From an uncultured bacterium (GTDB lineage Bacteria > Bacteroidota > Ignavibacteria > Kapaibacteriales > UBA4661), in NCBI GenBank assembly GCA_937899715.1, contig CALCNX010000090.1, positions 1 through 64,000 on the forward strand: a stretch of DNA of 64,000 nt, in the 5' to 3' direction. Shown in pieces: positions 16,978 through 59,228 of this stretch. The translations under genes were made by a program, and so were the position numbers. Under the pieces are notes generated by a model. That model was not told the DNA's origin, did not search any database, and saw only the letters and a program-made list of their open reading frames with translations. Numbering within the stretch: position 1 is the stretch's first letter; each line of letters begins with the position of its first letter.

Positions 16978-17010
16978 TCCTCGTTACCGAACTACACACA
17001 GTCTTCAAAT

Positions 17011-23334: not shown

Positions 23335-24726
23335 TTATTTATCCCACCAAACACGGTTAAAAATAGCACTTTGCTCAAGTGAACCGCCTGCAGCAGCCCA
23401 GTTGGTGGCGTTATACAACCGCTCGCTTTGTGAGTATGGTAAACGGCGCGGAATAGCGTTTCCGGTAGCCGGCTTAAGGGTCGGCAATGCAGTTCTACGC
23501 CAGTCCACCCACGATTCATTACTCATATACAGAGCAATATATTTTTGCTCCATGATACGATCCAGGGTAATAGCACCCGCTGGAACAACACTTGGCTGCG
23601 CTACATATGCGTCAATAGCTGTTGCTGCTATGGTACCATATGAAGTGCTGTTGTAAGTAGCCAAAGAAGCCCTGACTGCTGCGGTAAATGCAGTTTTTGC
23701 TGCATCTGCGTTTCCTTGTGCGAGATTTGCTTCTGCTTCAATAAATTTTTGCTCAGCATATGTACCAAGCAGTACAGGCGACCCCTGTGAAGCGTGAAAT
23801 TTTCCCAGCGCAGTACTATCACCACTGACAGTTTGTACAATAAGGGATTTACGAGGGTCGTTAAGTTTATTGAGCAAGGTCATAAAGTTCGGGTGAACAC
23901 GAATGTCTCCGCGCTGTGAGTCGAACTGATACAACGGATTTGCGTTGCTCGCTGCACCTTGTACGAACGTTACTTTCAAATCTTCGGAAGCCGATTGCAA
24001 GCCTTTTGCCGCAAACGTCAATGCTTGTTGCATTGCCTGTGTATTATTTTGTTTTGACAAGTGCAAAGCATAGCGAGCTTTCAGCAACCATGCTGCACGA
24101 ATCCAGCGTTGACGACCCGTAGCGCCACCGCCGTAGATAACGTCATCGGTAGCACCGGGAGAGAGTGAGCTTGTAGCAGCGCCCAAATCAACAATAGCTG
24201 CATCAAGTAATGACTGAATCTCCGTGTAGAGTGCCTCTTGCTTGTCGTATGGAACTTGAAGCAAGCCGTTACCTTGGAATGCTTTTGTATATGGAGCATC
24301 ACCAAAAGAATCAGTCAAATTACCGAGGCATGCTGCCATCAATACACGAGCGACCCCGCGATAGTGAGGGGAGTTGGTTTCCGTACCTTTGTCAATCATA
24401 ATCTTTAGATTATTCATGCAATTCTCGTACATATTGTTCCAGATGGACTCAGTATCACTTTCAAGAATCTTATACAGGTTACCAATTCCATCATGTTGGC
24501 GAACAATACCAAGATTGTGTTGGGTTAGGAGGCTGGAAAAACGATTTAAATTGCCGCCAAACGTGTAGCCGACGCTTACTTCTGCGCCTAAAAGAAGGTT
24601 GGTCAAAGCAGCGTCTGCCGGACTGTTGGGGTCAATATTCACCTTGGGGTCTATCCATTGTGAACATGACATAGTGACGAGTGCGACAATAGCTAGCGCA
24701 GCTCCGGAAATACGAAATTTTTTCAT
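23335..24726 (-). CDS. SusD/RagB-family outer-membrane lipoprotein
   Basis: Lipoprotein signal …LVTMSC; size and position immediately downstream of SusC-like TBDR. Confidence 0.7.
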   Translation of the reverse strand: MKKFRISGAALAIVALVTMSCSQWIDPKVNIDPNSPADAALTNLLLGAEVSVGYTFGGNLNRFSSLLTQHNLGIVRQHDGIGNLYKILESDTESIWNNMYENCMNNLKIMIDKGTETNSPHYRGVARVLMAACLGNLTDSFGDAPYTKAFQGNGLLQVPYDKQEALYTEIQSLLDAAIVDLGAATSSLSPGATDDVIYGGGATGRQRWIRAAWLLKARYALHLSKQNNTQAMQQALTFAAKGLQSASEDLKVTFVQGAASNANPLYQFDSQRGDIRVHPNFMTLLNKLNDPRKSLIVQTVSGDSTALGKFHASQGSPVLLGTYAEQKFIEAEANLAQGNADAAKTAFTAAVRASLATYNSTSYGTIAATAIDAYVAQPSVVPAGAITLDRIMEQKYIALYMSNESWVDWRRTALPTLKPATGNAIPRRLPYSQSERLYNATNWAAAGGSLEQSAIFNRVWWDK

Positions 24727-24777
24727 AATATTTCTATCCTCGAGAAATAGTTGGAGTTTCAAAGTTATTGTAAGACA

Positions 24778-27700
24778 TTAGAATCCGACACGAAGACCAA
24801 ATGTATAGGACTTTGTACCAGGATTATTAAAATAGTCCAAACCTTGAGCGTTATTTGCACCAAGCAAACTTGATTCAGGGTCAACACCTCTATAGCTTGT
24901 GCTTAACCACAGGTTTCTACCGGTAAAGAATACTTCAATATTCTTCACGATAGCAAGCGGTTCAGTAACAACTTTTGGCAAACGATAGCTTACTGTAATT
25001 TCCCGTAAGCGAATCCAGCTTGTACTTTCAGAAAGTGACTCGCCCATACCACTATTAAAGTTATTGTTGTAACCGTCCGTACCCCAGAAGGACTGACCGT
25101 AGTTACCGTTGGGACGTTTGAAGATAACTGTGGTGTTCGGCTTGCCATCGGCAGTTACACCTTGAGCAACGTTATTCACAAAAGTAACGCCATCGTATGT
25201 GCCATTAAGGTTAGCACGTGCGGCAGTTTCGATTCCAGTTCCAAAATAGTTAAGCGCACCACGAGTGCCATTCCACATAAATCCGCCTTGTTTGATATCC
25301 AACAATGCAGTAATGGAAAGCCCCTGCCAGCTCAGTTTAGGACGAATGCCCATGATAAAGTCGGGAGTTGCAGACCCCCATGCTGACTCTGCCGCATTTG
25401 TTTGCGGAAGTCCGTCGGCATCAATAATCAATTGCCCTTGAGCATTACGCAACCAACCAAGACCGTAGATTGAGCCATATGGCTTACCTGCAACGGCACG
25501 AAGAGAGCCGCCATTAAAACCACCTAAGAAGATATTATCAACACCTGGCGCTAATTCCTTCACCAGATTTGACAATGCTGAAAAATTCACTGACAAATCA
25601 AATTGGAAATCGCCAGGCGCTTCAGCACGTACAATTGTCGAGTTAAGAGCAACTTCAATACCTTTGGTTTCCATTGTACCAGCATTCACTACCCTTGTGT
25701 CATAGCCTGTTGATGTAGCGATAGGCACTGGGAGGATTTGATCTTTATTTGTTGTCTGATACACGGTAACATCAAGACCAAAGCGGTTCTGGAAAAATTT
25801 CAACTCAAGTCCGAGTTCGATTTCAGTTTTACTTTCGGGACGTAGCTGATCGCTTCCAAGCGTAGTGCCTTTTTTAAAGCTGGTTGTTCCGTTGAACGGG
25901 AAGGTAACACCATTAGTATAACCGTCGGCAACACTTGCCCGAACAAATGGTGTGGTTAAGTTGTAAATAGGCGCATCACTTCCACTTTGAGCGTATGATG
26001 CTCTAAGTTTACCATAGGGAAGTATTTCATTATCCTTAAAGAAAGCTTCTGAAAAGATGAAGCCCACGTCTACACCGCCATACATAAAGCTATTATTTTT
26101 CTCAGGCAAAGAAGTTGACCAATCATTACGCAGACTACCATTTACATACAACATATCCTTAAATTCAAATCCCAATTTAGCGAAGAGCGAACCTCTCCGC
26201 AGAATACCATCATACTGGAATACTGAATATGGCGCAACGTTCGATAGATGGTAGTAATCAGGAATAAGTAGACCGTCACCTCGGCTAAAAATATAGTTAT
26301 CAATTCGTTGATAGAGGTTATTACCAAGAATAAGTTTTGCACGAAAATCTTCGGTAATTCGCTTGTCAAGAGAAAGGATAAGGTCGGAATTCAAAATAGA
26401 AGCGCTCTCTCTATCAGCAACAACACGACCTGTCGGGAAGGAGGCAGCACCGATTGCAAAGTGCTGATCTATTTTGGTGGTGGTAAAGTCTTCACCCAAG
26501 CGATACGTAATGCTAAGGTCACCCAAAATGTCTTTCAGGAACCAATCTGCCTTCGTATACTTTAATTCCAGCGAACCGGTCAGACGGCTTACCTGTTCGG
26601 TCAGAGGTTGTTGATTAACAACCCAATATGGATTGTCGTATGTACCAAAACCACGATAGGAGCGCTGACGACCGGCAATACTTGCACCGTTAAATGATGC
26701 ACCTGCCGGAAACTTGTAGGTATTCGGGTCGGTAGGATCGCTAAGACCATTGGAATTATCAAATGTTGGTGGTGTCCGAAACAAGCCAAGTGTAACACCT
26801 GATGTATTGGAACCACGCTCAATACGTGTAGCATCCGAACCTGTGTATTGAATATTCGCAGCAACAGAAAAATCATCAAACATATTATACGTAGCATTAA
26901 CGCGGAATGTACCTTTGTTGTATGCTGAATTAGGGACAACACCCTTACTGGAGAGCAACGATGCAGATGCAAAATATGTAGCTAAGTTGCTACCACCGCT
27001 AATGTTAAGATTATGCTGCTGAGTAATACCGGTTTGATAGAATTTATAGCGGTCATATGGTGTTACGGGAATGGAGTTGGGGTAGAGTGCTTTCTGAGAA
27101 GCTCCTACGATACTTCCATTCTTGTCCCATGGGTAATCAGTTTTTGTCCAAATTAATGTGTCTATCCTTGCGCCCCATGAGGTCGAAGTTCCACTGTTTG
27201 GCAAAGCAAGGTTACCATTTGCGCCTTGCGAGTAGGTGGTTTGTAATTCCGGCAATTTATTTACTTGCTCATATCCAAGAGAATAGGAGTAGTTGATGCT
27301 TGCTTGTGAGCCTTCTTTACCTTTTTTCGTGGTAATAACAATAGCCCCCGGTGATGCCAAAAGACCGTATAGTGTTGTTGCCGCAGCACCTTTAAGGACG
27401 TTAATAGACTCAATGTCATCAGGATTTAAGTCCATAGCACGGTTTCCAAAATCCACGCTATTCGTTGTACCCGAACCATATGCACCGTTACCTGCATCGT
27501 TGCTCATAGGAATACCGTCAATAACGAAAAGCGGTTGATTATTGCCCGTAATTGACGATGTACCGCGAATCTTAATATAAGAAGAACCACCGGGTGAACC
27601 GGAAGAGCTACTCACTTGAACGCCTGCAATTTGACCGGCAAGTGCATTCACAACGTTTGGTTGGCGCCCCTGCTCAAGAACATCTCCCTTTACCTCCTGC

Positions 27701-28074
27701 ATAGCGTAAGAGATAGCTTTTTTCTCCTGCTTGATACCGACCGCTGTTACAACGAGTTCCTCAAGCAACATCACGTCTTCAGCAAGAGCAACATCCAGAT
27801 TTTCGCTCGAAATAGCGACTTCTTTTTTCTTGAAGCCGATATATTCAAACACAAGCGTTTTAGCATCCGAAGGTGCAGCGATTGCATATGTACCATCCGC
27901 TTTTGCAAACGAACCACGATTACTGCCTTTAACGGTGACTTTCACGCCGCCGAGGGCTTTTTTGGTAGCGGCATCTGTTACCTTACCGGTAATAGTCCGT
28001 ACCTGTGCTGAAGCGAAGGCAAAGGAGCAAAGCACCATTACCACCGCCAAAGAAATGCGTAGCATATTTTTCAT
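24778..28074 (-). CDS. SusC/RagA-family TonB-dependent receptor
   Basis: N-terminal carboxypeptidase-regulatory-like domain (ITGKVTDAATKKALGGVKVTV), plug domain, ~1100 aa barrel, C-terminal …TFGLRVGF; start at ATG 28074 gives signal peptide. Confidence 0.8.
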   Translation of the reverse strand: MKNMLRISLAVVMVLCSFAFASAQVRTITGKVTDAATKKALGGVKVTVKGSNRGSFAKADGTYAIAAPSDAKTLVFEYIGFKKKEVAISSENLDVALAEDVMLLEELVVTAVGIKQEKKAISYAMQEVKGDVLEQGRQPNVVNALAGQIAGVQVSSSSGSPGGSSYIKIRGTSSITGNNQPLFVIDGIPMSNDAGNGAYGSGTTNSVDFGNRAMDLNPDDIESINVLKGAAATTLYGLLASPGAIVITTKKGKEGSQASINYSYSLGYEQVNKLPELQTTYSQGANGNLALPNSGTSTSWGARIDTLIWTKTDYPWDKNGSIVGASQKALYPNSIPVTPYDRYKFYQTGITQQHNLNISGGSNLATYFASASLLSSKGVVPNSAYNKGTFRVNATYNMFDDFSVAANIQYTGSDATRIERGSNTSGVTLGLFRTPPTFDNSNGLSDPTDPNTYKFPAGASFNGASIAGRQRSYRGFGTYDNPYWVVNQQPLTEQVSRLTGSLELKYTKADWFLKDILGDLSITYRLGEDFTTTKIDQHFAIGAASFPTGRVVADRESASILNSDLILSLDKRITEDFRAKLILGNNLYQRIDNYIFSRGDGLLIPDYYHLSNVAPYSVFQYDGILRRGSLFAKLGFEFKDMLYVNGSLRNDWSTSLPEKNNSFMYGGVDVGFIFSEAFFKDNEILPYGKLRASYAQSGSDAPIYNLTTPFVRASVADGYTNGVTFPFNGTTSFKKGTTLGSDQLRPESKTEIELGLELKFFQNRFGLDVTVYQTTNKDQILPVPIATSTGYDTRVVNAGTMETKGIEVALNSTIVRAEAPGDFQFDLSVNFSALSNLVKELAPGVDNIFLGGFNGGSLRAVAGKPYGSIYGLGWLRNAQGQLIIDADGLPQTNAAESAWGSATPDFIMGIRPKLSWQGLSITALLDIKQGGFMWNGTRGALNYFGTGIETAARANLNGTYDGVTFVNNVAQGVTADGKPNTTVIFKRPNGNYGQSFWGTDGYNNNFNSGMGESLSESTSWIRLREITVSYRLPKVVTEPLAIVKNIEVFFTGRNLWLSTSYRGVDPESSLLGANNAQGLDYFNNPGTKSYTFGLRVGF

Positions 28075-28639
28075 AACTACAAAATGAATTGGGGTGAAAC
28101 ATAATGTGATAGAATTGAACCGTTCTACCACAAAGGTTTGGGGTCGTAGGAAGAAAAAAAGTCCAAAACAACGCTGAAGCATAGATTTTAACGAGTATTT
28201 GCGATAATATATTGGCAGCGTTTAACACTAATTAACATTAAGAATTTATATAAAGTCGAAACTTTTTTAGGAACAAGCCGTAATATTGCATTTTTTTTAT
28301 CTCTTGACCAAAAAATTTCGCGCCAAGCGTACATTTCTAAATGTTAATTTGTATTTCTCACGCCCTGTGAAAAAGAATGGATGCCATTACTGAACTGAGA
28401 AATAAACCTTGGGCTACCGAGCTGTTCGGCGAGAATCGTGATTGACAAACAATAGATTTGTTCACGAGCAAACGGCTTTTTTTGCGTACATCTCCACTTT
28501 TTTTGCTAGTTTTGTAGGCTGTGTGTGTTTGTACAACTTTTTAGCGAAACAACCATTTGTACTTGTACACTCTTTCTTTCCTCAACACACTCACGCGACG
28601 AATTCAATTCTTTTACCCAAATCTCTTTGTAGGCACACG

Positions 28640-35720: not shown

Positions 35721-36593
35721 TCACACCTCAAGAATTTCAAATACATTCGCACGAATAGTGCCGGAGATGGAATCAAGCGGAAGGTCGTTGGAATCAAGTC
35801 CGAAGGGTTCTTCAATTTCTTCGGCTATCATCTCCAGCCCCATAAGGATGTAACCCGCAAACATCTCCGCCGGAATGGTGTAGAGTTCATATTTTTCGAT
35901 GAGCAAAAACGGTAAGATGACTAAATAAACAAAGATGAACACCCGAATATACGTGCCATAGCTGGGCGGAATGGGAGTAAACTTTATGCGCTCACACACA
36001 CCCGTTGTATCCAGCAGCACGTCGTATTGGGGCTTCATATTGCGCATATCCTCGCCGCGAAAAATACCGCTCCGAAACAGCGTTTGCATCCGCTCAAAAA
36101 TTGCTTTGCCGATAGCGTTCGGAACGTGCTGCACCGATTGCAAGTGTTCTACGGATGCGGGGTCGAGGTCGGAAAGCTCTTCGGGAATGAAGGTATCGCG
36201 GAGGTGATTCTTGGTAGCAAACGTGTAGGCGCTGATGTGCTTGGCAAAGAAGGCGCGGTTATCCTTGTCAGCGCGAGGCAGCATGGCGTGGAGCATCGTT
36301 GCAAAAATGCGCGTGTGAATCACTAGGCTTCCCCACGCTTTGCGCCCTTCCCAAAAGCGGTCGTAAGCGGTATTCGTGCGGAAGACCAGAAGCAAACTGA
36401 GCATTGTGCCCATAAGCGACGCAAAGATGATGTCGCTCCGAAGCGGTATCCAATGGTATTTTGCTTCCACAATCAGCAAAACAAGCGTGTATAAGCCAAA
36501 CCACGCAATACGCTTCAGCAAAAGCGCCATTGTGCCGCGTGTGTGAAAATCCAACAACGTGCTGAAAAATTTGGGTGCGCGTTCGTCGCTCAT
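35721..36593 (-). CDS. Bestrophin-like / UPF0187 (YneE) family membrane protein, paralog A
   Basis: LFRTNTAYDRFWEGRKAWGSLV family signature; about 60% identical to paralog at 40029-40928. Confidence 0.65.
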   Translation of the reverse strand: MSDERAPKFFSTLLDFHTRGTMALLLKRIAWFGLYTLVLLIVEAKYHWIPLRSDIIFASLMGTMLSLLLVFRTNTAYDRFWEGRKAWGSLVIHTRIFATMLHAMLPRADKDNRAFFAKHISAYTFATKNHLRDTFIPEELSDLDPASVEHLQSVQHVPNAIGKAIFERMQTLFRSGIFRGEDMRNMKPQYDVLLDTTGVCERIKFTPIPPSYGTYIRVFIFVYLVILPFLLIEKYELYTIPAEMFAGYILMGLEMIAEEIEEPFGLDSNDLPLDSISGTIRANVFEILEV

Positions 36594-36841
36594 AACGGCT
36601 TTCCTAACGCTTGAGAGGATGAAAGAAAACAACAATAAATACAACCACTGCTTGCCTTGCGAATAGGCAGCGCCGAGCGAAATTAACCAATCCATGTGCA
36701 ATTCGCAAACGGAATCCCGAAAAAAGCCTGCGAGGAAAATTTATTTGCCCACCCCAAAGTTTTTCTTCATCTTTGCACCGTGCAAATGGCTCTCCATGCT
36801 GCATATTTCTACCATAGCTCCAAACAGTAGTGTAAAAGTAA

Positions 36842-42851: not shown

Positions 42852-44825
42852 TTATTGATTCAAATAAAAGCGCTCACTGCCCAGCAGAAGCATCGTTTCC
42901 TCAATTTCTTGCGTTAGCTTCAAGCCGTCAGTAAACCCGCTTCCTTTAAATTGAATACGCCCGTTTTTGTCGAGATAAAAGCGCATCGGTAAGCCCGTTA
43001 CACCGTATTTCTGTGCCATGATGTTGTTGTCATCCACCAAAATAGAAAAATAAAGCGAAGAATTCCTCGCCATATAGTCCTTGACAAGACCGAACTGGTC
43101 TTTGCCCTTATCTTCCCACGCATCAATGACAACAATGTTAAAATCTCCTGCTTTAACGTACTTGTTATACAACACATTCACGAAAGGCATAGCTTTTAAG
43201 CAGGGTTCAGCCCATGACGACCAAAACATAATCATTGTGGGCTTGCCTTTGAAGGAAGATAACGTCACAGGCTTATGGTCTGTCGTGAATATTGTACCGT
43301 CAATCAATTCGCGGTCGAGACGTTGTTTGATTTGTTTATTTGCCAGCAATGCAGAAGCAGAGTCTTTCAACCGTTGGAGTTCAGCCACGTACAAGGTAGA
43401 ATCGGTCTTTTTTCCACGTGCAGAATCCATAGCTCTTCTGTGCCATTTCAAAAGGACATCATCACCGCCAGTTGTTACGATACCTTGCGCAGCAATCGCC
43501 ACTGCCTCAGCATAACGTTTTTTCTCGAACAATATTCCGGCAGCCTGCGAGAAGGCAGGAGCGGGAAGCTCGCCTTTTGTGATTTCTAATGCACTCGTGA
43601 AGGTAGAAAGCGCATCATCGGGGCGTTTCAATTCCACATAGATTGCGCTAAGAGTGTTATAGACATCGCCAAGTGTGGCAGTGGTATTCAAATTCCATTC
43701 AATTTCGGCAATATGCGAAGGACGCTGATACAACGGCTGACGCTTTGCAAGTTCAAGTGCTTTCTGGGCATAACGCAAGCCGCGTTCCTCGCTTGTATCG
43801 GTGCGGCACCAGTATTTTGCAAGTTCATTGTATGCAAGGGGCGAGACATTCGGAAGCGTGTCCAGCCACTTCGCAGCATCGGTGAGACGACGCACTTGAG
43901 CAAAGGTTGCCACAGCAGCACCCTGCATCATTGGTGCCATCGGTGATTCTCTAAATTTCATTGAAAATTCCACAGCCCGCACCAAGAACCAATCCGGCAC
44001 AACTTGAACTTGAAGTACTTGCATTGCATTATCTTCAGCAATTTTACTTTTCGGGAATCGCTTGATATATGCGTCTTCCAGAGCTTTTGCTTGATTTGCC
44101 ATGCCAAGAGCATTCAAGCCGCGAATCACAGCACGAGTGTCGTTTTCGCGTGTCGTGTCGAAAGGTTGCGATACATAGCTTTGCAAACTGCGACGGTACG
44201 TCTCCTCCGGTATGTCCTTCACGTCGTACGCCAATGCCACTTCAGCGACTTTTGCCGAAAGATTATTCGGATAAAAGCGTAATTCTTCCCGCATGAGTTG
44301 AAGCGCTTTGGGAAAATCAGACGAGCGGCTGCACTCGGTGGGCAAACTCCCTAAAAAAGTGATTGCATTTCTAAGCAAGGAACCTTGTACAGGCTTTGCA
44401 CCGTCACCTGTAATGCGTGTGTCCCAGTAATTGCCATTGTTATCGTCGTAACGAGAACCATTGAAAAGTTTCATCATCCAAAACACATCGGTTTGCTTTA
44501 CCGCTATTTCGCCGCCAAAACTCCCATCGAAGCGACGGGTGAGTTTGACGTAATCTGCCACAGGCTCGCCGGAAATTTCTCGGAAACGATAGACAAGAAG
44601 GTAAATGTTCTCAGCATTACGCCAAGCAGAATCCGGTTTGTAGGTGAACGAGGCACGCTCACCAAGGCGCGGCATAGCAGGGCTGATACTGAGTTCGCCT
44701 CCCTTTACAGTCAGTGAAAAAAGCATCGGCGAGAGCATCACAAGCCAGCTGAGGACAAACAGTCGTATGGAACGTGATTGATGCAAAGTCTGATTTGGTG
44801 CGGTGTGTACGCCACAGATGTTCAT
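42852..44825 (-). CDS. TPR-containing protein with C-terminal thioredoxin-like (TlpA/AhpC-TSA) domain carrying a degenerate W-A-E-P-C motif
   Basis: C-terminal 130 aa aligns with the TlpA fold (…IMFWSSWAEPC…GVTGLPMRFYLDKNGRI); only one Cys in the CxxC position. Confidence 0.55.
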   Translation of the reverse strand: MNICGVHTAPNQTLHQSRSIRLFVLSWLVMLSPMLFSLTVKGGELSISPAMPRLGERASFTYKPDSAWRNAENIYLLVYRFREISGEPVADYVKLTRRFDGSFGGEIAVKQTDVFWMMKLFNGSRYDDNNGNYWDTRITGDGAKPVQGSLLRNAITFLGSLPTECSRSSDFPKALQLMREELRFYPNNLSAKVAEVALAYDVKDIPEETYRRSLQSYVSQPFDTTRENDTRAVIRGLNALGMANQAKALEDAYIKRFPKSKIAEDNAMQVLQVQVVPDWFLVRAVEFSMKFRESPMAPMMQGAAVATFAQVRRLTDAAKWLDTLPNVSPLAYNELAKYWCRTDTSEERGLRYAQKALELAKRQPLYQRPSHIAEIEWNLNTTATLGDVYNTLSAIYVELKRPDDALSTFTSALEITKGELPAPAFSQAAGILFEKKRYAEAVAIAAQGIVTTGGDDVLLKWHRRAMDSARGKKTDSTLYVAELQRLKDSASALLANKQIKQRLDRELIDGTIFTTDHKPVTLSSFKGKPTMIMFWSSWAEPCLKAMPFVNVLYNKYVKAGDFNIVVIDAWEDKGKDQFGLVKDYMARNSSLYFSILVDDNNIMAQKYGVTGLPMRFYLDKNGRIQFKGSGFTDGLKLTQEIEETMLLLGSERFYLNQ

Positions 44826-44969
44826 AGCACAACTGCCAGATAGTGAAACAAATGGATTAGAGGAATTACAAAGGTACGGATTTTTCAGAATATTTCCCGA
44901 AGGAACGAAAAAGTTGTAAATTTGGAAGTGCCGTACATTGTATTTTATTTAGACACAAATAGCCTTCAA

Positions 44970-46719: not shown

Positions 46720-49158
46720 TTAAAATTTGAAACCAAGGCTGATAGTCGGCACAATGCCGAAAAGCGTGTATTGGGTCAGAACAGGTACGGAACCTGTTAT
46801 CGTTGGATTCTGTGTGGGCTGCGGGCGATAGTTCAGAATCCACGCAAACGGATTTTGGCGGTTATAGACGTTGTAAACATTGATACTGAAATTGAACGGG
46901 AGACCAAACCACGTAAAGTTATTGGTCAAATTCACATCCAGTTTGTGGAAGTCCGGCAAACGGAAACCATTACGCTCGGTATAGCTGTTAAACTGCCCCC
47001 CATAAAAATAGCCACCTGTTGATTGTCTATCTTGCCCGGGAATACCACTGTAATAAAACTGCGATGAAGGCATGGTGTATGCTTGTCCGGTGGCAAACGT
47101 CCACGTAGCACCGATTTCCCACGCTTCGTTAAATCGGTACGTCGCCACAACTGAAACGTCATGGCGGCGGTCGTAGCGCGGCGCAAAGGGCTTGCCATCG
47201 TTGAGTTCGGCAAAGGTGCGGTTTGTCCACGAGAGCGTATAGCCAATCCAGCCCGTGAGAGCGCCCAAGCGCTTATTGATAAAAAGTTCTACGCCGTAGG
47301 CATTGCCATCACCGCGCGTTAGCTGACTTTCGGCAGGCGTAAGAAAGCCAAAGTTTGCGCCATCCTTAAATTCGTAGAGATTGCGTAGCGATTTGTAGTA
47401 GCCTTCTACACTGACAAAATATTCTTTGCCCAAAAGACTCGTCTCCACACCCAAAATATATTGCATGGAATTACCGGGCAGAATTGTTTCGGTGGACGGG
47501 AACCACGTATCGGTGGGCAAGGAAATGCCGTTATTCACCACCAGATGCAGGAACTGATTTGCCACAGCAAATGCGCCTTTGATAGAAATATCTTCCGTTG
47601 GCGCAAAAGCAAACGAAGCTCTTGGCTCAGGAAGAAAACGATTGCCGCGTTGAAAATACGATAGGCGCAAGCCCAGATTTGCAGTCAGTTCAGGAGTAAT
47701 TCTCCATTCGTCTTGCCCATAGACGGAGGCTTCGAGCGCGTCAATTCTGCCGGATGTAAGATTTGCCATTTCTGCCACTTGCAAGACTTGCTCATTATTG
47801 GATTCCAAAAGCGTCGTAAAACGATGGAACGTAGCATCAAAGCCAATCTTGACCGTGTGTTCGTCAGCAGGAAACCACTGCACATCGCCACGTGCCGTAA
47901 AGTCTCGTATCTGCGAGAGTGTGCGGAAACTCGTCGTATCGAAACTATTCTGCGAGATAATATTTGCTCCGAACCGATAATCGGTATAAATCGCAGAAAA
48001 ATTGGTAAAAAGCGACGGCGAGATAATATGCATCCAGCGCAGATTGCCGGTCGCATTGCCCCAGTCTATTCCAAAACCCACACCTCCCGTTGCTTGCTGG
48101 TTCTGCGGCGCTACCACGTCGCTACCAAAATAACCACTTGCGTAAAGACGGTCGTTTTCGGAGATTTTGTAGTTAATTTTTGCGTTGACATCGTAGAAAT
48201 AATAATTGAGAGGCGATTGCCCTTGGGTCGCTAAATTCAGCAACAAATCGAAGTAGGTGCGCCGCCCGGAGACCATAAATGTTACGTCTTCCGTTATTGG
48301 ACCTTCAACCGTAAGCCGTGATGCAACCAGGCTTATGTTACCTGCGCCTGTAATTTTTTCTTTCGAGCCTTCCTTCATCGTCATATCAATCACACTGGAC
48401 AAACGACCACCGTATTCTGCCGGAAAACCGCCCTTGATAACCCTTACATCACGCATTGCATCGTTATTGAACACGCTCAGAAAACCTCCTAAGTGCGACG
48501 GATTATAGACAATCACGCCATCAAGCAAAATCAGATTTTGGTCGGGTGAGCCGCCGCGCACATAGAGACCGCTTGAAAGCTCACCACCCGATTTAATACC
48601 GGGCATGAGTTGCAGCGCACGAAAAATATCCGTTTCGCCGCCCAGTGTCGGCATTTTGCTTATAAATTCGGATTTTATCTCTACCGAACTGATGGTTCGC
48701 GTGGACGTAGCCTCGCGCTCTGCCTGCACTGTTACTTCCTGTGAACGAACATTTTGCGTACCAAGCGCAATATTCTCGCGCACGGGTGCAGTACCGACAA
48801 CAATACGCTTCGCAAACTGCTTATACCCAACACCACGCACCACAAGGAAATACGAGCCTTCGGGAACATCCGGCAATGAATAAAACCCGAATTTATTTGT
48901 GCGCGTCCCCCGAACGATCGCAGAAGAACGAGCAACAACACTGTCAGTGGCAAGTATCACGTTGATACCAATAACAGATTCTCCCGATGCTGCTTCGCTC
49001 ACGAGACCGGAGACGGCAGCACGCTGCTGAGGAGACGGGGAGACCGATTGCGGGGTTGCGCCCGGAACAGGAGAATTATCAACTTTTTGAGCCATAATGT
49101 GGCTCCCACACGCTAGAGTGCAAACAAGCAAAAGCGCGGCTAAACGGCAATGCTTCAT
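46720..49158 (-). CDS. TonB-dependent receptor with N-terminal carboxypeptidase-regulatory-like domain
   Basis: Signal peptide; CarbopepD_reg-like segment; plug and 22-strand-size barrel; C-terminal …ISLGFKF. Confidence 0.75.
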   Translation of the reverse strand: MKHCRLAALLLVCTLACGSHIMAQKVDNSPVPGATPQSVSPSPQQRAAVSGLVSEAASGESVIGINVILATDSVVARSSAIVRGTRTNKFGFYSLPDVPEGSYFLVVRGVGYKQFAKRIVVGTAPVRENIALGTQNVRSQEVTVQAEREATSTRTISSVEIKSEFISKMPTLGGETDIFRALQLMPGIKSGGELSSGLYVRGGSPDQNLILLDGVIVYNPSHLGGFLSVFNNDAMRDVRVIKGGFPAEYGGRLSSVIDMTMKEGSKEKITGAGNISLVASRLTVEGPITEDVTFMVSGRRTYFDLLLNLATQGQSPLNYYFYDVNAKINYKISENDRLYASGYFGSDVVAPQNQQATGGVGFGIDWGNATGNLRWMHIISPSLFTNFSAIYTDYRFGANIISQNSFDTTSFRTLSQIRDFTARGDVQWFPADEHTVKIGFDATFHRFTTLLESNNEQVLQVAEMANLTSGRIDALEASVYGQDEWRITPELTANLGLRLSYFQRGNRFLPEPRASFAFAPTEDISIKGAFAVANQFLHLVVNNGISLPTDTWFPSTETILPGNSMQYILGVETSLLGKEYFVSVEGYYKSLRNLYEFKDGANFGFLTPAESQLTRGDGNAYGVELFINKRLGALTGWIGYTLSWTNRTFAELNDGKPFAPRYDRRHDVSVVATYRFNEAWEIGATWTFATGQAYTMPSSQFYYSGIPGQDRQSTGGYFYGGQFNSYTERNGFRLPDFHKLDVNLTNNFTWFGLPFNFSINVYNVYNRQNPFAWILNYRPQPTQNPTITGSVPVLTQYTLFGIVPTISLGFKF

Positions 49159-49544
49159 ACAAAGCAACCTTTGATAAAGTTAAAAAAATGAATTGAAAAA
49201 AGAGACGACCTCAACGAAGCAGCCCTGAAAAAACTGACTTCCTTGAAAAAGAACTGAACGAAGTAAAGGTTACAAAATAGGCAGAGTTCCTGTGAAGAAA
49301 AGAGATTGCTTGAAAGGCAGACTATACAACACCATATCAGGCGATAACAAATTTTTTTTTTGTGAAAGACGCACTCCAAATGAGCAGGAGATTTATTTGA
49401 CCAGACACAAATATAAAGAAATTTCTTTATATCATGCAAACGACCGTAGAATTTTTCTTTTTCTCTTCCATTGACCACTGTTTTTTTGTCTATGAATAAG
49501 TTTTTGCCGATATTAGAACAAACGTTCTAAGAAAAAATACATTT

Positions 49545-52211: not shown

Positions 52212-52528
52212 GCGGTATTTGGGTCTTATAGCGAGATATGTATGGTGAAGTTTACAGCCTCAAATCTATGAAGAATACTGTAACGAGGCGATTACACGGC
52301 ACATCAAATTGTGATAACACGTGCGAAAGTCATTGTTGAGATGCATCCCTGAAGAAATCACATTGGATTTGTGGATTTTTTTTGCCAACTTCGCGCACGA
52401 AGAACATAAGTTCCTATTGGTAATGCCTCACGCTTGGGGCAGTGCCTTTTTCATTATCATCAAGGTTGTAAACTCCTTTGCCATTTGAGTACAAAGGAAA
52501 TCATAGCCTCTGCCTAATTTTGCAGACC

Positions 52529-54070
52529 ATGATGCAGAAACATTTTCGCTTCCCTTCTTGGCTTCTCAGTTGCATAGTTCTCTTTGCACTGTGCTCATCC
52601 ACCTGTGCCATTCGTGCTGTGGCGGACTGCCCGACCGTTATTTTGACGGCAAAAGACGGCACTTTTTCAAGCCCGGTATCTTCGCAAGGCGACATCCATT
52701 ACGACACGCAACTTCGCTGCCAATGGATACTAAAGCCCACTGATGCCAAGCAAATCCGCCTGTGGTTCAGTGATTTTGCAACTGAAGAAAACCGTGATGT
52801 GGTGCGCATTTACGACGGAGCGGAAACCACCGCACCACTCCTTGCCGAACTGAGTGGCTCCAACATTGACGAAGCAACGTCCGTCGTTTCCACAGGAGGC
52901 GAAATGCTGGTGGAATTTTTGACGGATAATCTTCGTAACATTGACACCGATTTCGGCTGGCGGGCGCATTATGTCTCATCTTCTGTACGGAGCATTTTGA
53001 GTGCAACACCCGACAATCTGGACTTTGGCGTAGTTGTGCTAGGAAAAATCTCTGCTCTCAAATCATGTGTCGTAACAGGTTTTCGCATCACCGACGATAT
53101 TCGTATTGCCGCACCGCGTGGATACTTGCTTGCTCTCTCGCCATCGGGTGCTTTCAGCGATACGCTTTTTGTGCCGGGCAACCGCGATAGCGCTACCTTT
53201 ACGCTCTACATTCAATTCACGCCGCCTACAGTCGGTGACTTCGACAAACGAATTTCCATCACGAGCCGCACCGCGTTTGCAGTGGTTGACGCACAAGGCA
53301 TTGCACCGCCTGCAATTTATTGGGAGCCTATGACGGGTCCCTACACCGCATCAATTCTGTGTATGGCTGCCGATAAAGATGATGATGTCTATGCTGGAAC
53401 GCATAACGGGGTTTATCGCTCCAACACAAACGGGCACGCATGGATACAAAGTAATGAAGGACTGAGTAATAATGCGGCTTTGTCGGTTCGAGGTATCGCA
53501 GTCTTAGGAGATGAAGTATTTATCGGTACCGAAGATGGCGTGTATAAGTCGAGCAATGGCGGAAAATCGTGGCAATCACGCAGCGTCGGCTGCCCGAAGT
53601 TTGTTCACACTATCGTCGTCAAAGGTGATACGCTGCTTGCGGGAACAGACCAAGGAATTTTTCGCTCTACAGATGATGGCGAATTGTGGAAACCGCTTAA
53701 TAACGGACTCAAGAACCATGCGGATGTAACGGCAATTTTCATTTCAGAAAATATCACTTTTGCTGCAACGGGAGATTCGATACTGTATCGCTCTACCAAT
53801 CACGGCGAGACATGGACGCAAGACAATACCTTCGGGAAGCACCGCATTGACTGCTTTGGTCAGCATAAGGACGTTATTCTCGCCGGAACACAAGGCGGCT
53901 GGATATATCGCAGTGAGAACGGCGGCGCATGGAAAAAACTTGATGACCTCACTTTACCGGAAGATGGCTGGCAATACGTCCTGTCACTTGCCACCGACAA
54001 AGACGGTGTGTTCTATGCTGGCACAGAAGAAGGTGTCTTACGTTCCGGCGACGACGGCAAAACATGAGAA
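52529..54070 (+). CDS. N-terminal part of giant T9SS cargo protein (CUB-like domain + Ig-like + BNR propeller), terminated by in-frame TGA at a conserved Trp position
   Basis: Signal peptide; CUB-like C.WIL…IRLWFSDF.TE…DVVRIYDG…GW.AHY; BNR repeats; frame continues beyond TGA. Confidence 0.55.
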
Positions 54071-55840
54071 CTACGCGACAAAGGTTTAAGTGAGCCGATT
54101 GTAACGGCACTCGTCGTGGAAGGCACCGATGTTTATGCCGGAACAGATGCAGGCATTTTTGTCTCCGAAGACAAAGCAGCAACATGGCGTGAGGCAAATC
54201 AAGGCTTAACAGGAGCTATCGTAACCGATATGCAAGAGCACAGGGGGCTGATACTGGCAGCAACGGCGGGCGACGGTGCATATCGAACATCCGACAACGG
54301 TGCAACGTGGCTTCCTTCCGATGCGGGTTTGCAAGCCCGCTACTTACGCGGTTTTGCTTCCAGAGGAAAAGATTTATATGTCGCCGCTTACGATGAATAC
54401 GACCCTTCTAATCCACACATCACTATTCCGGGCGTGTATCGCTCCAACAACAACGGAACATCGTGGACACCAGTGCTGATAGACACCGTGCGGGATGCAG
54501 CAGGAAAAATCAAAACACTCCACCCTTTCCATTCAATTGTCGCAACAGGCTTCGGTACGCTCATTGCGGGTGGCGACGAAGGCGTGATTTGCCGCTCGAC
54601 CAATGGTGGCGTTTCGTGGACAAAATCAACAATTATCCGCCTTGCTACTGTTGACTTGCCGTCTGTTACAACGCTCATTATTGGTCTTGACGACGCTATT
54701 TTTGCGGGAACTGTCGGCGGAGGAATTTTTCGTTCCGATGACGACGGGCAAACATGGCGGCGCACCTTTGGGGACGAACGCGGTCTTTCGGATAAAGCCC
54801 GCCGCGTCAATCACATCATTCGGGAGCAAACGGCACTTTTTGCAGCTACCGATGCAGGGATTTACCGCAGTTTGAGCAATGGTCTTTCGTGGTTACGATT
54901 GAATTTCCCCGATTCATCGGGCAGCGTCAAGGACACCATTCTGCCGCAAGCAATCATCGCTGTCGGCGGTGCGCTGTATGCCGGAACGGATGCACACGGC
55001 GTGTGGAGGTCGCTCAATGACGGCATATCGTGGGAGCGCGTCAACGAAGGATTGAACGACGATGCCGATATAACATCGCTTGCTGCTGCCGGAACGACCG
55101 ATTTATACATTGGTTTGCACGGTGGTGTGGTCTATCGCACATCGCTCCAAAGCTCGGTCAATTCTGCCCGTGCTGTACTCGAAATCCCAGAGAATCTCAC
55201 AGCAAAGCCCGGCGACGAAGTAGAAATACCGATTATCCTCAAAAGTATTCAGTCACCACCGGCAAATATTCGCTCCATCAAGGGACGATGTATTTTGCGC
55301 TTCAATGCCTCTATGCTCGACCCCGGCACAGCTTTGAGCCAAGAAGCTGTCGTCAATGGCGACCGCCTTATTCCCCTCACATTTGATTTACGTCCGAATG
55401 CGGGGACAGCACTTGCTACCTTGCGCTTCCGTGCTCGGCTTGGCGATGCGATTGCTACGCCGCTCATTTTGACAAGTCTCAGCGCGGACGGCGTGATTTT
55501 ACTCGCTCCGAAGCCCGGTGTTCTTACGCTGACAGGTCTTTCCTACGCGGGCGGTGCACGGCTTTTCAGCTCTGAACGTGCTCCACTGCTGGCAGCAACA
55601 GCACCTAATCCCGTCAATGACAACGCCAAAATCAGCTACACACTCCAAGCAACGGCAGATGTGAATGTATCGATCGTCAATATCTTTGGCATAACCGTTA
55701 AAACATTGGTCGCTAAACGCTTGCTGCCGGGTGATTACGAGGTCAACATGGCAACGGATGATGTGCCGCCGGGTGCATATTTCCTTGTGCTTCAAACAAA
55801 CGCTCACCGCATTTCCCAACCAATCCGTATCGTGAGATAA
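54071..55840 (+). CDS. C-terminal part of the same interrupted ORF: BNR/Asp-box repeats + T9SS C-terminal sorting domain
   Basis: Same reading frame as upstream half, no stops between 54071 and 54116; repeats S.D.G.TW; ends with Por_Secre_tail-like …GAYFLVLQTNAHRISQPIRIVR. Confidence 0.55.
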   Translation, partial: LRDKGLSEPIVTALVVEGTDVYAGTDAGIFVSEDKAATWREANQGLTGAIVTDMQEHRGLILAATAGDGAYRTSDNGATWLPSDAGLQARYLRGFASRGKDLYVAAYDEYDPSNPHITIPGVYRSNNNGTSWTPVLIDTVRDAAGKIKTLHPFHSIVATGFGTLIAGGDEGVICRSTNGGVSWTKSTIIRLATVDLPSVTTLIIGLDDAIFAGTVGGGIFRSDDDGQTWRRTFGDERGLSDKARRVNHIIREQTALFAATDAGIYRSLSNGLSWLRLNFPDSSGSVKDTILPQAIIAVGGALYAGTDAHGVWRSLNDGISWERVNEGLNDDADITSLAAAGTTDLYIGLHGGVVYRTSLQSSVNSARAVLEIPENLTAKPGDEVEIPIILKSIQSPPANIRSIKGRCILRFNASMLDPGTALSQEAVVNGDRLIPLTFDLRPNAGTALATLRFRARLGDAIATPLILTSLSADGVILLAPKPGVLTLTGLSYAGGARLFSSERAPLLAATAPNPVNDNAKISYTLQATADVNVSIVNIFGITVKTLVAKRLLPGDYEVNMATDDVPPGAYFLVLQTNAHRISQPIRIVR

Positions 55841-55843
55841 TCC

Positions 55844-57997
55844 ATGAAGAAAGCAACTATACCCTTCCTCTGCACGGCGCTCACGCTTCTGTTCGTTGTT
55901 GTTTCTTGCCCTTTATTTGCTCAAACGCAAGCAACGGTGCAGGCAGCATCGCAAACGACAACACAAGCATCGGACAACGATGGCATTCGATACGGCATAA
56001 CGGGATTGTTCAATTACAACAGGCACAGCGCTCGTTTTTTGCAAATTCCCCGCGCGGTGCGGGAAAATTTAACCGACTACTATTTTCAAGATGGCGTGGG
56101 AACAGGCCTTTCGGTGGGAGCATTTATCGGAATACCGATTTTTCGCTGGCTCAATCTCGACCTCCGCGCCAGCTACGTTCAGCGCAGTGGAACGCTCTAT
56201 TCGCGGCTTGACTCGGAAATCGTCGGACGGCGCGACGGCACAGGCGATGTGGGTATTTTTCGCCGCACGTTCACCGCTAATTTGGCAACAATCGGTTCGG
56301 AGGTATTTTTGAACTTTAATCCCGCGCTCGGCTTGAACGTGTATTTGGGCGGACGTGCAGAGTGGGCAATCGCAAAAACGTACCGCCAAGAAGAAGCGAT
56401 AGTTGCGCCGTCGGACGGCGTGTTCCACGACACCGGCGAGCGCACACGGAATGTGCAAAGCGGAACACTTCCCGACGTGCGCAATCTTGGCGTGGCAAAT
56501 ATGAACATTGAAGTTCTGGGTGGCATCGGTTACGAAATTCCGATTCACCCATCGGGTGCATGGACACTGGAGCCGACACTTTTTTACGGAGCGCAAATCT
56601 ACTCAGTCTTGCAAAATTTAGAAAAGGATGAGTATTGGAAAATTGCGACGCTGCGCGGTGGTGTTGCGCTCAGATACTACCCCGTGCGGGAAGCACAGTT
56701 CGATAGTCAGTTGTACAAAGTCAAACAACTGGCATCCATGGAAAAGCAACTTTCGGAAGAGCGAAAAAAGATTCAATCCGAACTCAAAGAACTCCGCCAG
56801 TCAGGTGTTTTTGTCAAAATCGGTCTGCCGGAGGGCTTGCTTGCTGATGGCTCGGAAGTACAGAACCCAACCATTCGCGTCGAGCAGTTCCGCTCATCGG
56901 CAACTGTTCAGCTTTTGCCGCATATTTTTTTCAACGAAAATTCATCTGTTATTCCGGCACGGTATCGCCGTATTGCTTCCTCCGAGCGCACAAGTTATTC
57001 CTTCAATCGTCTGACCAAACTGCGCCCGCTTGAACTCTACTATCATATTTTGAACATTATCGGCAAGCGCCTTCAAGAGCGCACCGAAGCTCGCCTCACG
57101 CTCACTGGATACTCGTTCACTTCCGGCTCAGAAAGCGGCAATAAGAAACTGGCACAGCAGCGAGCCGAATCGGTGAATGATTACTTGCAAGATGTATGGA
57201 AAATTGCGGCTAACCGCTTGACCGTGACCATACAGGACGTGCCTGCTCTTCAGGCGGGAAGCGATGCCGAGGCTGATTACCGCCGTGTGGATATTGCCTC
57301 GACCGACCCCACGATTCTGCAAGCAGTCACCTTTGAAAGTATGTATCAGACTGTTTCGCCGCAAGCATTGCGCTTTTCGCTGGACATCAATGCCGGAGCG
57401 GGTTTGAAGCAGTGGAGCCTTGAGGTATCGCAGTTCGAGGGGAACGAAATCAAAACGCTGTTTAATGTAGAAGGAACAAATACGTACTCCAAAGAATACA
57501 TCTGGCGCATTGATGAGCGCCCTGCATCTGTGCCGGGCTTCACGGGAACGCTGGATTCAAAATTGGAAGTAACCGATGTGAACAACCGCAATAGCGACGC
57601 ACCTATTCAGACCACGCCCGTCGAGGTGATTATGCTTGCCGACAAAATCACGAAAAAGGTTCCCGACACTCGCGTTGATGTTCTTACGCTTGTAGCATCT
57701 TTGGGGAAAGAAATCACGGAGGGCGAGACGTTTGCTGCTTTCAAATCAAGTCTGTCGCAGAATGTGGCGCTTACGGTGGAAGGATGGGCGGAAGGCAAAG
57801 ACGATACAAGCCTGAATACCGATGCCGCCGATGCACGGGCGCGTCAGGTGGTGCAAGCCTCCGGCGTTCCGGCAAAAATAGTAAGCAGCAAAAAGAATGT
57901 AGCGTGGATGAAAGCATTGCACAACGACGCAAGCGTACCCGAAGGACGGCTCTACAACAGGGCTGTCCGTGTGGAGATACGGAAGCAGATTCAGTAA
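55844..57997 (+). CDS. Outer-membrane protein with N-terminal beta-barrel-like region and C-terminal OmpA-like domain(s)
   Basis: Signal peptide; Gly/aromatic-rich barrel region; coiled coil; …RLTLTGYSFTSGSESGNKKLAQQRAESVNDYL OmpA-like; starts 4 nt after the previous stop. Confidence 0.5.
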   Translation: MKKATIPFLCTALTLLFVVVSCPLFAQTQATVQAASQTTTQASDNDGIRYGITGLFNYNRHSARFLQIPRAVRENLTDYYFQDGVGTGLSVGAFIGIPIFRWLNLDLRASYVQRSGTLYSRLDSEIVGRRDGTGDVGIFRRTFTANLATIGSEVFLNFNPALGLNVYLGGRAEWAIAKTYRQEEAIVAPSDGVFHDTGERTRNVQSGTLPDVRNLGVANMNIEVLGGIGYEIPIHPSGAWTLEPTLFYGAQIYSVLQNLEKDEYWKIATLRGGVALRYYPVREAQFDSQLYKVKQLASMEKQLSEERKKIQSELKELRQSGVFVKIGLPEGLLADGSEVQNPTIRVEQFRSSATVQLLPHIFFNENSSVIPARYRRIASSERTSYSFNRLTKLRPLELYYHILNIIGKRLQERTEARLTLTGYSFTSGSESGNKKLAQQRAESVNDYLQDVWKIAANRLTVTIQDVPALQAGSDAEADYRRVDIASTDPTILQAVTFESMYQTVSPQALRFSLDINAGAGLKQWSLEVSQFEGNEIKTLFNVEGTNTYSKEYIWRIDERPASVPGFTGTLDSKLEVTDVNNRNSDAPIQTTPVEVIMLADKITKKVPDTRVDVLTLVASLGKEITEGETFAAFKSSLSQNVALTVEGWAEGKDDTSLNTDAADARARQVVQASGVPAKIVSSKKNVAWMKALHNDASVPEGRLYNRAVRVEIRKQIQ

Positions 57998-58026
57998 ATA
58001 TGCATATTTTTCGCTGACATTTTTAC

Positions 58027-58683
58027 TTACTCTTTCTGCCACCACCGAAACGCCGGAAGCGCAGAGAGTAAAGTCGCTCCAAGGAGCAGCACAGCATAAA
58101 AGTGAGCCGTGCTGTAATCAAGCCCCTGTACGGCATCGTAGAGCGCAATGGAGGCGGTACGTGTTTCCCCGGCAATATTACCGCCAATCATCATCACTAC
58201 GCCAAATTCGCCCAACGAATGAACAAATACAAGCGCACTGCCTGTTAGAAGACTTCTCCGCGCAATCGGTATTGCCACGCGCACAAATACTTGGCTTCGG
58301 GTAGCACCATCCAGCACAGCATTTTCCAATATTTCAACGGGAATCGCTTCAAATCCGTTCTTAACAGGCTGCACCATAAACGGCAGTCCATAGAACACCG
58401 AACCCAGCACTAATCCCGTGAAGCTAAACACTAAGTGCACATCCAAACTATCCGCCAGCCAAGCACCGACGGCGTTTCCCCGCCCGAATACATACAAAAA
58501 ATAAAAGCCAATAACCGTTGGTGGAAGTGCTATGGGCAAGCTCACAAAACTTTCAATAATCGGTTTCAGACGATGCTTTGATAATGCCAAACCGTAGGCA
58601 AGCGGCACGGCAACGACAAGCAAAACAAGCACAGTCGTAGTAGCAAGGCGCAAAGAAACAAGTAATGGCGAGATGTCCGGCAT
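58027..58683 (-). CDS. ABC transporter permease, ModB/CysTW type (molybdate/sulfate/tungstate family); no adjacent binding protein or ATPase
   Basis: EAA-loop region LDGATRSQVFVRVAIPIARRSLLTGSALVFVHSLGEFG; 218 aa. Confidence 0.55.
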   Translation of the reverse strand: MPDISPLLVSLRLATTTVLVLLVVAVPLAYGLALSKHRLKPIIESFVSLPIALPPTVIGFYFLYVFGRGNAVGAWLADSLDVHLVFSFTGLVLGSVFYGLPFMVQPVKNGFEAIPVEILENAVLDGATRSQVFVRVAIPIARRSLLTGSALVFVHSLGEFGVVMMIGGNIAGETRTASIALYDAVQGLDYSTAHFYAVLLLGATLLSALPAFRWWQKE

Positions 58684-58835
58684 GAGTCAAAATATAAACA
58701 AGAAAAGATATTACTTGAACCAACGATGAAAAGTCTTGTGCAAAACAAAAAATCTGAATAAGTTTTCGGTTTCTACACGTGCCCATCAAAATACGCAATA
58801 AACGAGTATTCATCAATAATTCCACGATGTGATGT

Positions 58836-59228
58836 ATGGACATTTTTCCCAATGATGATTTCCCGACGCTTGAGCGCAACGGAAAAACATTTGTCCAAGT
58901 CTGCCACAGCAGCGATGTTCTGCGCCGTAAGGGTACGCGCGTGGAATTTGACGAAGAGCTTCAAATCGCCATCTTTCGGGTAGGCGAAAGGCTTCATGCG
59001 GTCTCCAACATCTGCCCGCACAATCACTCGCCCTTGCTCCACGAAGGCGAAATCAACACTGAAGATTGCACTATCAGTTGCCCAATGCACGGGTGGACGT
59101 ATTCGTTGCACACGGGACGGCACACCTCTTCAAGTCATTCCCACGTGAAAGTCTATGACGTTTTTGAGGAACATGAATTGGTGTATCTCGAAAAGCCACA
59201 GCCCGTGGAAGTGGAATGGAAGTGGTGA
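58836..59228 (+). CDS. Rieske [2Fe-2S] domain protein (NirD-like small subunit)
   Basis: CPHNHSPL…C..HGW Rieske ligands (CxH-X16-CxxH); opposite-strand ORF 58773-59123 judged a shadow. Confidence 0.6.
   Translation: MDIFPNDDFPTLERNGKTFVQVCHSSDVLRRKGTRVEFDEELQIAIFRVGERLHAVSNICPHNHSPLLHEGEINTEDCTISCPMHGWTYSLHTGRHTSSSHSHVKVYDVFEEHELVYLEKPQPVEVEWKW

Follow-up and report, generated by a model that had tools for sequence, protein, structure and literature searches.

A single in-frame TGA at a conserved Asp-box tryptophan codon splits a predicted type IX secretion cargo gene on one Candidatus Kapaibacterium contig

The window analysed here, 64,000 nucleotides (nt) of contig CALCNX010000090.1 from an uncultured bacterium of the order Kapaibacteriales, carries a gene for a predicted cargo protein of a type IX secretion system (T9SS) that is interrupted by one in-frame TGA. 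As judged from its translation and from its uninterrupted orthologues, the gene occupies 52529–55840 (+), comprises 1103 codons including the internal TGA and ends in a TAA terminator (55838–55840). The stop is codon 513 (54065–54067, +), the position of Trp 513, where TGG has become TGA through a G>A change at 54067; the surrounding codons (54056–54076) read GGC AAA ACA TGA GAA CTA CGC and the local peptide is R-S-G-D-D-G-K-T-stop-E-L-R-D-K-G-L. Our current working hypothesis, which we consider probable, is that TGG turned into TGA by a nonsense mutation of very recent date, fixed or in the majority in the sampled Candidatus Kapaibacterium strain population. The two open reading frames (ORFs) concerned, 52478–54067 (an end that counts the stop codon in) and 54116–55840, share one frame with this single stop between them, and translation probably begins at ATG 52529 (MMQK; MMQKHF...), since the close orthologues of 1102–1106 amino acids (aa) begin there. 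The sequence-only reading of this DNA had already described a single in-frame TGA at the Trp of a BNR repeat that splits a T9SS cargo ORF, with which both sequence and translation agree. It had placed the TGA at 54068–54070, whereas the actual site lies 3 nt upstream, and its ORF of 1121 codons holds as one long split frame but not in its length, which is 1103 codons from ATG 52529.

The ancestral state of the interrupted codon is evident from the relatives. A protein search gave 14 full-length orthologue clusters (35–96% identity, 1080–1167 aa), all of them single ORFs. The 90% cluster of the nearest orthologue contains 12 intact members and exactly two short ones, P0130 (512 aa) and P0121 (574 aa); these are the window's own two halves, and both are recorded from one 110,967-bp contig only. 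Looking up either half as an exact product gave no match. All 25 distinct full-length orthologues (35–99% identity) are uninterrupted and carry ...DDG-x-TWELR... at the site, and an alignment of 20 sequences, six of them more distant homologues down to 25% identity, shows W513 without exception. At the DNA level the homologous codon is TGG in the related loci L001, L002, L004, L005, L006, L007 and L008. The closest DNA is L004 (GCA_044227435.1, JBGAWW010000045.1), which belongs to the same species, is collinear with the window and is 96.0% identical to it over 21 kb; TGG is found there as well as in L005 (93.5% identity), in L001 and L002 (88%) and in three GTDB representative metagenome-assembled genomes (MAGs). 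All the orthologues come from MAGs whose label reads Candidatus Kapabacteria, Candidatus Kapaibacterium or 'Ignavibacteria bacterium'. Because TGG or Trp stands at the homologous codon in all orthologues, the TGA can be read with confidence as a derived G>A change at 54067, private to one contig. The earlier proposal that the stop occupies a former TGG is thus borne out; the comparison of orthologous loci that had been suggested with it yields an intact gene with Trp or TGG everywhere examined, and none of the orthologues examined terminates here and is followed by a second, independent gene, an arrangement that had been named as speaking against the proposal.

The position of the stop within the protein might seem conspicuous. 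The Asp-box repeats comprise twelve of the form G-x-x-W together with SEDKAATW (those listed in the sequence-only reading are all present, each with its Trp), and the TGA falls on the Trp position of the sixth. With TGG restored, 324 of the 9927 possible substitutions in the gene (~3%) are one-step routes to a stop. Transitions account for 73 of these routes, and 42 of the 73 (58%) lie at the gene's 21 Trp codons, 13 of which encode repeat tryptophans; a G>A nonsense hit would land on a conserved Asp-box Trp with a chance of roughly one in three. Since Trp codons supply 58% of the transition nonsense routes, a stop at a conserved Trp is unremarkable, being the expected signature of G>A nonsense mutation and not evidence of recoding.

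The pattern of substitution on either side of the stop bears on its age. Changes were polarised by parsimony, using sites at which the window differs while L004 and L005 are the same. On the window lineage there are 18 synonymous changes and 1 non-synonymous change upstream of the stop, and in the 590 codons downstream there are 9 synonymous and 3 conservative non-synonymous changes (V>I, M>I and T>A); neither an indel nor another stop occurs in those 590 codons. The corresponding synonymous to non-synonymous ratios on the intact L004 lineage are 19:1 upstream and, much like the window's own, 14:3 downstream. Neutrality would be expected to make 25–30% of changes synonymous, for which the probability of 9 or more of 12 is 0.0005–0.002. 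The relaxed selection or decay past the stop that a pseudogene would show is accordingly not seen (9:3, no indels), and the substitution pattern indicates that purifying selection has shaped the downstream half through practically the whole history of the lineage. The stop must therefore be either very recent or not real, and the knock-out is much younger than the ~1% lineage divergence.

We infer that the base at 54067 is real rather than a consensus error, and several observations weigh against that view. The absence of downstream decay and the genus-wide conservation of the gene are equally expected from an error, and a consensus or base-call error may lie behind the A at 54067. Two scans of JGI metagenome contigs, with an exact 27-mer for either allele and with a degenerate pattern for the TGA allele, gave 0 matches as a second sighting of the TGA allele, and their emptiness leaves either allele of the strain without an independent sighting. 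Another contig of the same strain, L003 (ena:ERZ650283 NODE_5679), starts 1.1 kb downstream of the stop site. It is 100% identical to the window over 55211–59134 (3,924 nt), and its coverage, read from the contig name, is ~3.8x. The full alignment extends over window positions 55211–59176, with six mismatches bunched in the last ~30 nt at the contig end (59135–59162); this end is probably a strain variant or an assembly-graph break.

Such observations would suit an error of consensus, base calling or assembly, or an assembler's choice of a minority variant, in which case the organism has TGG and the gene is intact and ordinary. This explanation, which we think possible but doubtful, draws on the strong purifying selection on the gene in every relative together with the lack of decay past the stop, on the presence of the TGA allele on one contig only, and on the ~3.8x coverage of the strain in the L003 assembly, which suggests a low-abundance population with a more error-prone consensus. 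Set against it, the remainder of the window is free of signs of poor quality, with no other broken gene and no frameshifts, and a stop-making substitution is rare (324 of 9927, ~3%); moreover, in short-read assemblies real nonsense pseudogenes normally outnumber those made by error. A scan for stops flanked by at least 120 open codons on either side found this TGA to be the only internal single-stop split in the window; the other sites returned were real borders between genes, plus a stop that separates antisense ORFs within the histidine kinase gene at 14893–16977. The overlapping ORF pairs elsewhere in the window are distinct intact genes. In-gene indels relative to L004 are limited to one of 27 nt, in frame, at 48986 and a compensating pair of 1 nt each at 63447/63455, and the remaining three indels (49352–49354, 49481 and 58702) lie between called genes. 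With a sole internal split and no frameshifts the assembly is not error-ridden, and a low-quality long-read assembly was rejected as a source of the stop, there being no other broken gene or frameshift in the window. A clean window, taken together with a share of only ~3% for nonsense substitutions, therefore favours a real young nonsense allele over an error. The three alternatives offered in the sequence-only reading (nonsense mutation, sequencing error and leaky readthrough) were apt, and the comparisons made here rank them with mutation ahead of error and both far ahead of meaningful readthrough.

We also considered whether the TGA might be something other than a terminator. Among the 44 main ORFs of the window, TAA is used as the stop 26 times, TGA 10 times (including the internal one) and TAG 8 times, so that nine other genes terminate in TGA, including those at 89–1009 and 35721–36701. 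The TGA stops of the TetR, histidine kinase and QueG-like genes are conserved in the window, L004 and L005, with products of equal or near-equal length. On this comparative evidence we take TGA to be a normal terminator in the clade, in keeping with earlier statements that it is a genuine stop elsewhere in the window, as nine other TGA-ended genes attest, and that recoding of the whole genome is excluded, as the TGA stops of neighbouring genes conserved in relatives attest. Genetic code 4, in which UGA is read as Trp, is used by the Mycoplasmatota and some endosymbionts. The present gene resembles genes under that code in having UGA where a Trp codon is expected, but the G+C content of the window (~47%) is unlike that of a reduced AT-rich genome, and UGA recoding was rejected in view of the nine TGA-ended genes, of which three are conserved in relatives, and of the single internal TGA in 64 kb. 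Three further candidates were discarded. The position is an invariant Trp and there is no significant downstream hairpin, which does not fit a selenoprotein with UGA read as selenocysteine. Known targets of TadA adenosine-to-inosine editing sit in a U-A-C-G loop motif, and that motif is absent from the local sequence CAUGAGAAC, which does not fit editing of the UGA adenosine. Phase variation was dismissed because the wild-type run is merely GGG.

Readthrough requires fuller discussion. In Escherichia coli, Trp-tRNA(Trp) competes with RF2 for UGA and misreads it at 1e-3 to 1e-2 (PMC10570021), and some bacterial tRNA(Trp) variants with 4-bp anticodon stems read UGA better (PMC13092985). It could thus be supposed that near-cognate Trp-tRNA(CCA) decodes the UGA often enough to furnish useful full-length protein, the stop being tolerated as a hypomorphic or dosage-lowering allele. 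Of the stop codons UGA leaks most, and its misreading is specific to Trp-tRNA(Trp) (PMC10570021); an inserted Trp would give back precisely the wild-type protein, tRNA(Trp) variants with the 4-bp stem do exist in bacteria (PMC13092985) and the lack of downstream decay is compatible with such a scheme. We nevertheless consider it quite unlikely, given that the stop is found in none of the 25 orthologues, that no stable structure follows it, that three ordinary gene ends in the window share its UGA-G context and that the clade retains TGA as a true terminator. No stable RNA structure was found around or after the stop, the fold having a z-score of −1.26 with 23 of 200 shuffles folding as well. 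Established cases of near-cognate UGA readthrough (Hirsh-type suppressors or tRNA(Trp) suppressors with a 4-bp anticodon stem; PMC10570021, PMC13092985) share with the split gene a UGA where Trp gives the native protein; the present stop differs in not being conserved, in having no stimulatory context or structure and in lying in a clade where TGA is the normal terminator. There is no indication of readthrough beyond background leakage, and we regard it as unlikely. That an unusually efficient UGA-to-Trp decoding, for example by a tRNA(Trp)CCA whose anticodon stem has 4 bp, a type lately reported across bacteria, keeps the gene working appears very improbable. Were it true, the cell would tolerate the UGA as an allele that lowers expression, and in this free-living, Bacteroidota-related lineage the allele would mark an early natural step on the way to UGA reassignment. 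The window holds no tRNA genes, and no tRNA(Trp) was found in the eight related loci scanned (L001–L008).

The predicted architecture of the protein indicates what a real stop would do to it. The N-terminus, MMQKHFRFPSWLLSCIVLFALCSSTCAIRAVA, when judged by eye, resembles a Sec signal peptide in its basic n-region, hydrophobic core and A-x-A site, and an N-terminal helix is present in the AlphaFold model. It is followed by a CUB domain at residues 34–148 (52628–52972, +; Pfam PF00431, E = 1.6e-12, 48.1 bits, cut-off 21.4), a region whose PDB sequence match is cubilin. A tandem BNR/Asp-box beta-propeller with 13 recognisable repeats takes up residues ~265–870 (53321–55138, +), the Pfam BNR, Sortilin-Vps10 and PSII_BNR matches spanning residues ~265–850. 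At the C-terminus is a T9SS type A sorting domain (Por_Secre_tail) at residues 1026–1096 (55604–55816, +; PF18962, 29.1 bits against a cut-off of 27). Precomputed PF18962 matches are found on orthologues too, and TIGR04183 (NCBIfam) on the same gene is marginally below its threshold (20.9 bits against 23). The assignment as T9SS cargo in the sequence-only reading accords with a Por_Secre_tail match just over the Pfam cut-off; no genes for T9SS machinery were found within the window. A gene of paralogous T9SS propeller cargo type, encoding a 673-aa protein with BNR/Sortilin-Vps10 and Por_Secre_tail matches and apparently intact, lies at 10878–12899 (−).

The structural model was built by AlphaFold from P0004, an 85%-identical orthologue, with a mean pLDDT of 75 and values of 80–93 across most of the propeller region. 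Foldseek matches this model to tandem seven-bladed propellers, namely those of GH74, of the ectodomains of Bacteroides hybrid two-component sensors and of PorZ, with E values of ~1e-24 to 1e-26 for residues ~265–870. The GH74 xyloglucanases are similar in fold (6p2m, 2cn2, 4lgn and 5fkq; E ~1e-23 to 1e-25, TM 0.58–0.60 on the target). Asp-box S-x-D-x-G-x-T-W repeats are common to these tandem propeller proteins and to the product of the split gene, and PorZ of the T9SS also has a T9SS C-terminal sorting domain, as the split-gene product does. However, identity to GH74, the Bacteroides sensors and PorZ is merely 14–17%, and the split-gene product has additional N-terminal CUB and beta-sandwich modules. 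For the nearest NCBIfam model, the F510_1955 glycosylhydrolase, the score falls short of the cut-off (158 bits against 175). We do not file the split-gene product under GH74, and the modelled likeness is to be taken as one at the level of the fold.

Cargo of the T9SS requires both a Sec signal peptide and a C-terminal sorting domain (PMC12618676). The normal product, of ~120 kDa, would leave the cytoplasm by way of Sec, guided by its putative N-terminal signal peptide, and would then cross the outer membrane by the T9SS by means of its C-terminal sorting domain. Termination in the sixth of ~14 blades would yield two defective products instead. The N-terminal ORF (52529–54067, +; 512 aa and a stop; identical to protein P0130) comprises the putative signal peptide, the CUB domain, a beta-sandwich linker and ~5.5 propeller blades and is without the sorting domain, so that its product would have a first propeller that cannot be closed. 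The C-terminal ORF (54116–55840, +; 574 aa; identical to protein P0121), for which gene finders choose a GTG start, comprises the remaining blades, a beta-sandwich and the sorting domain, and any product re-initiated downstream at GTG 54116 would have no signal peptide. Both fragments are expected to be non-functional because T9SS substrates need a Sec signal peptide as well as the sorting domain. The gene would then be functionally knocked out, apart from traces of the exact wild-type protein that Trp-tRNA(Trp) would supply through its usual background misreading of UGA (0.1–1%).

A different view of the two ORFs is that the gene has undergone fission into a periplasmic CUB/half-propeller protein and a C-terminal propeller protein with the sorting domain, translated from GTG 54116. 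Gene callers do annotate two proteins, P0130 and P0121, but we think fission extremely unlikely: no orthologue is arranged in this way, the first propeller is broken inside one of its blades, and the downstream ORF has neither a signal peptide nor a ribosome-binding sequence, its T9SS sorting domain thus being unusable (PMC12618676). No Shine–Dalgarno-like sequence was found ahead of GTG 54116, and the homologous reading frame past the stop resumes at 54068, not at this GTG.

Immediately downstream, 4 nt past the TAA of the cargo gene, starts a gene for a 717-aa OmpA-domain protein (55844–57997, +) that is syntenic in all relatives and is likely to be its operon partner. This protein matches the PorE model via its OmpA domain only (16.9 bits against a cut-off of 600). 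Next comes an ABC permease gene (58027–58683, −), upstream of which, at 58702, the window and L004 differ by a 1-nt indel that leaves an upstream extension of 43 codons out of frame; the permease is called as 261 aa in L001 and L004, extension included, and as 218 aa in the window, L003 and L005, a difference that probably reflects an over-extended start call in the relatives and not a frameshift in the window. Further along, in an AAA_23/SMC-like gene, the 1-nt deletion and 1-nt insertion relative to L004 at 63447/63455 lie eight bases apart and alter two or three codons. The in-frame insertion of 27 nt (9 codons) at 48986 is carried by L004 and lies near the N-terminus of the receptor encoded by a TonB-dependent receptor gene (46720–49167, −). 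An extra HAMP-guanylate cyclase gene (positions 1039–2556 of L001) stands between the thioredoxin-like and NTP_transf_3 genes in the 88%-identical L001, corresponding to a gap near 44825–44922 of the window, and is absent from the window, L004 and L005. Elsewhere the window contains a tyrosine-recombinase gene of the phage integrase family at its start (89–1009, +), a pair of genes for SusC-like (1134 aa) and SusD-like (475 aa) proteins (23335–28182, −) and a TPR-histidine kinase gene that adjoins a TPR-adenylate/guanylate cyclase gene (14893–18807, −).

Taken as a whole, the split gene is of an ordinary and known kind, one derived nonsense change or miscall in a well-conserved T9SS tandem-propeller gene. 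With nonsense-mutation pseudogenes and loss-of-function polymorphisms of single strains it shares a one-step change, intact orthologues, restriction to one lineage and fragments each missing a part needed for export; it differs from them in showing zero secondary decay, which marks the stop as extremely young or not real. For annotation, the 512- and 574-aa 'hypothetical proteins' should be merged into one pseudogene or one corrected gene. Surface proteins of this sort are commonly lost, for instance where phages or predators exert pressure on them. Should the base prove real, the TGA would represent one strain-specific knock-out of a conserved surface or secreted protein of Kapaibacterium, with little at stake and an interest confined to population variation within the Kapaibacterium lineage.

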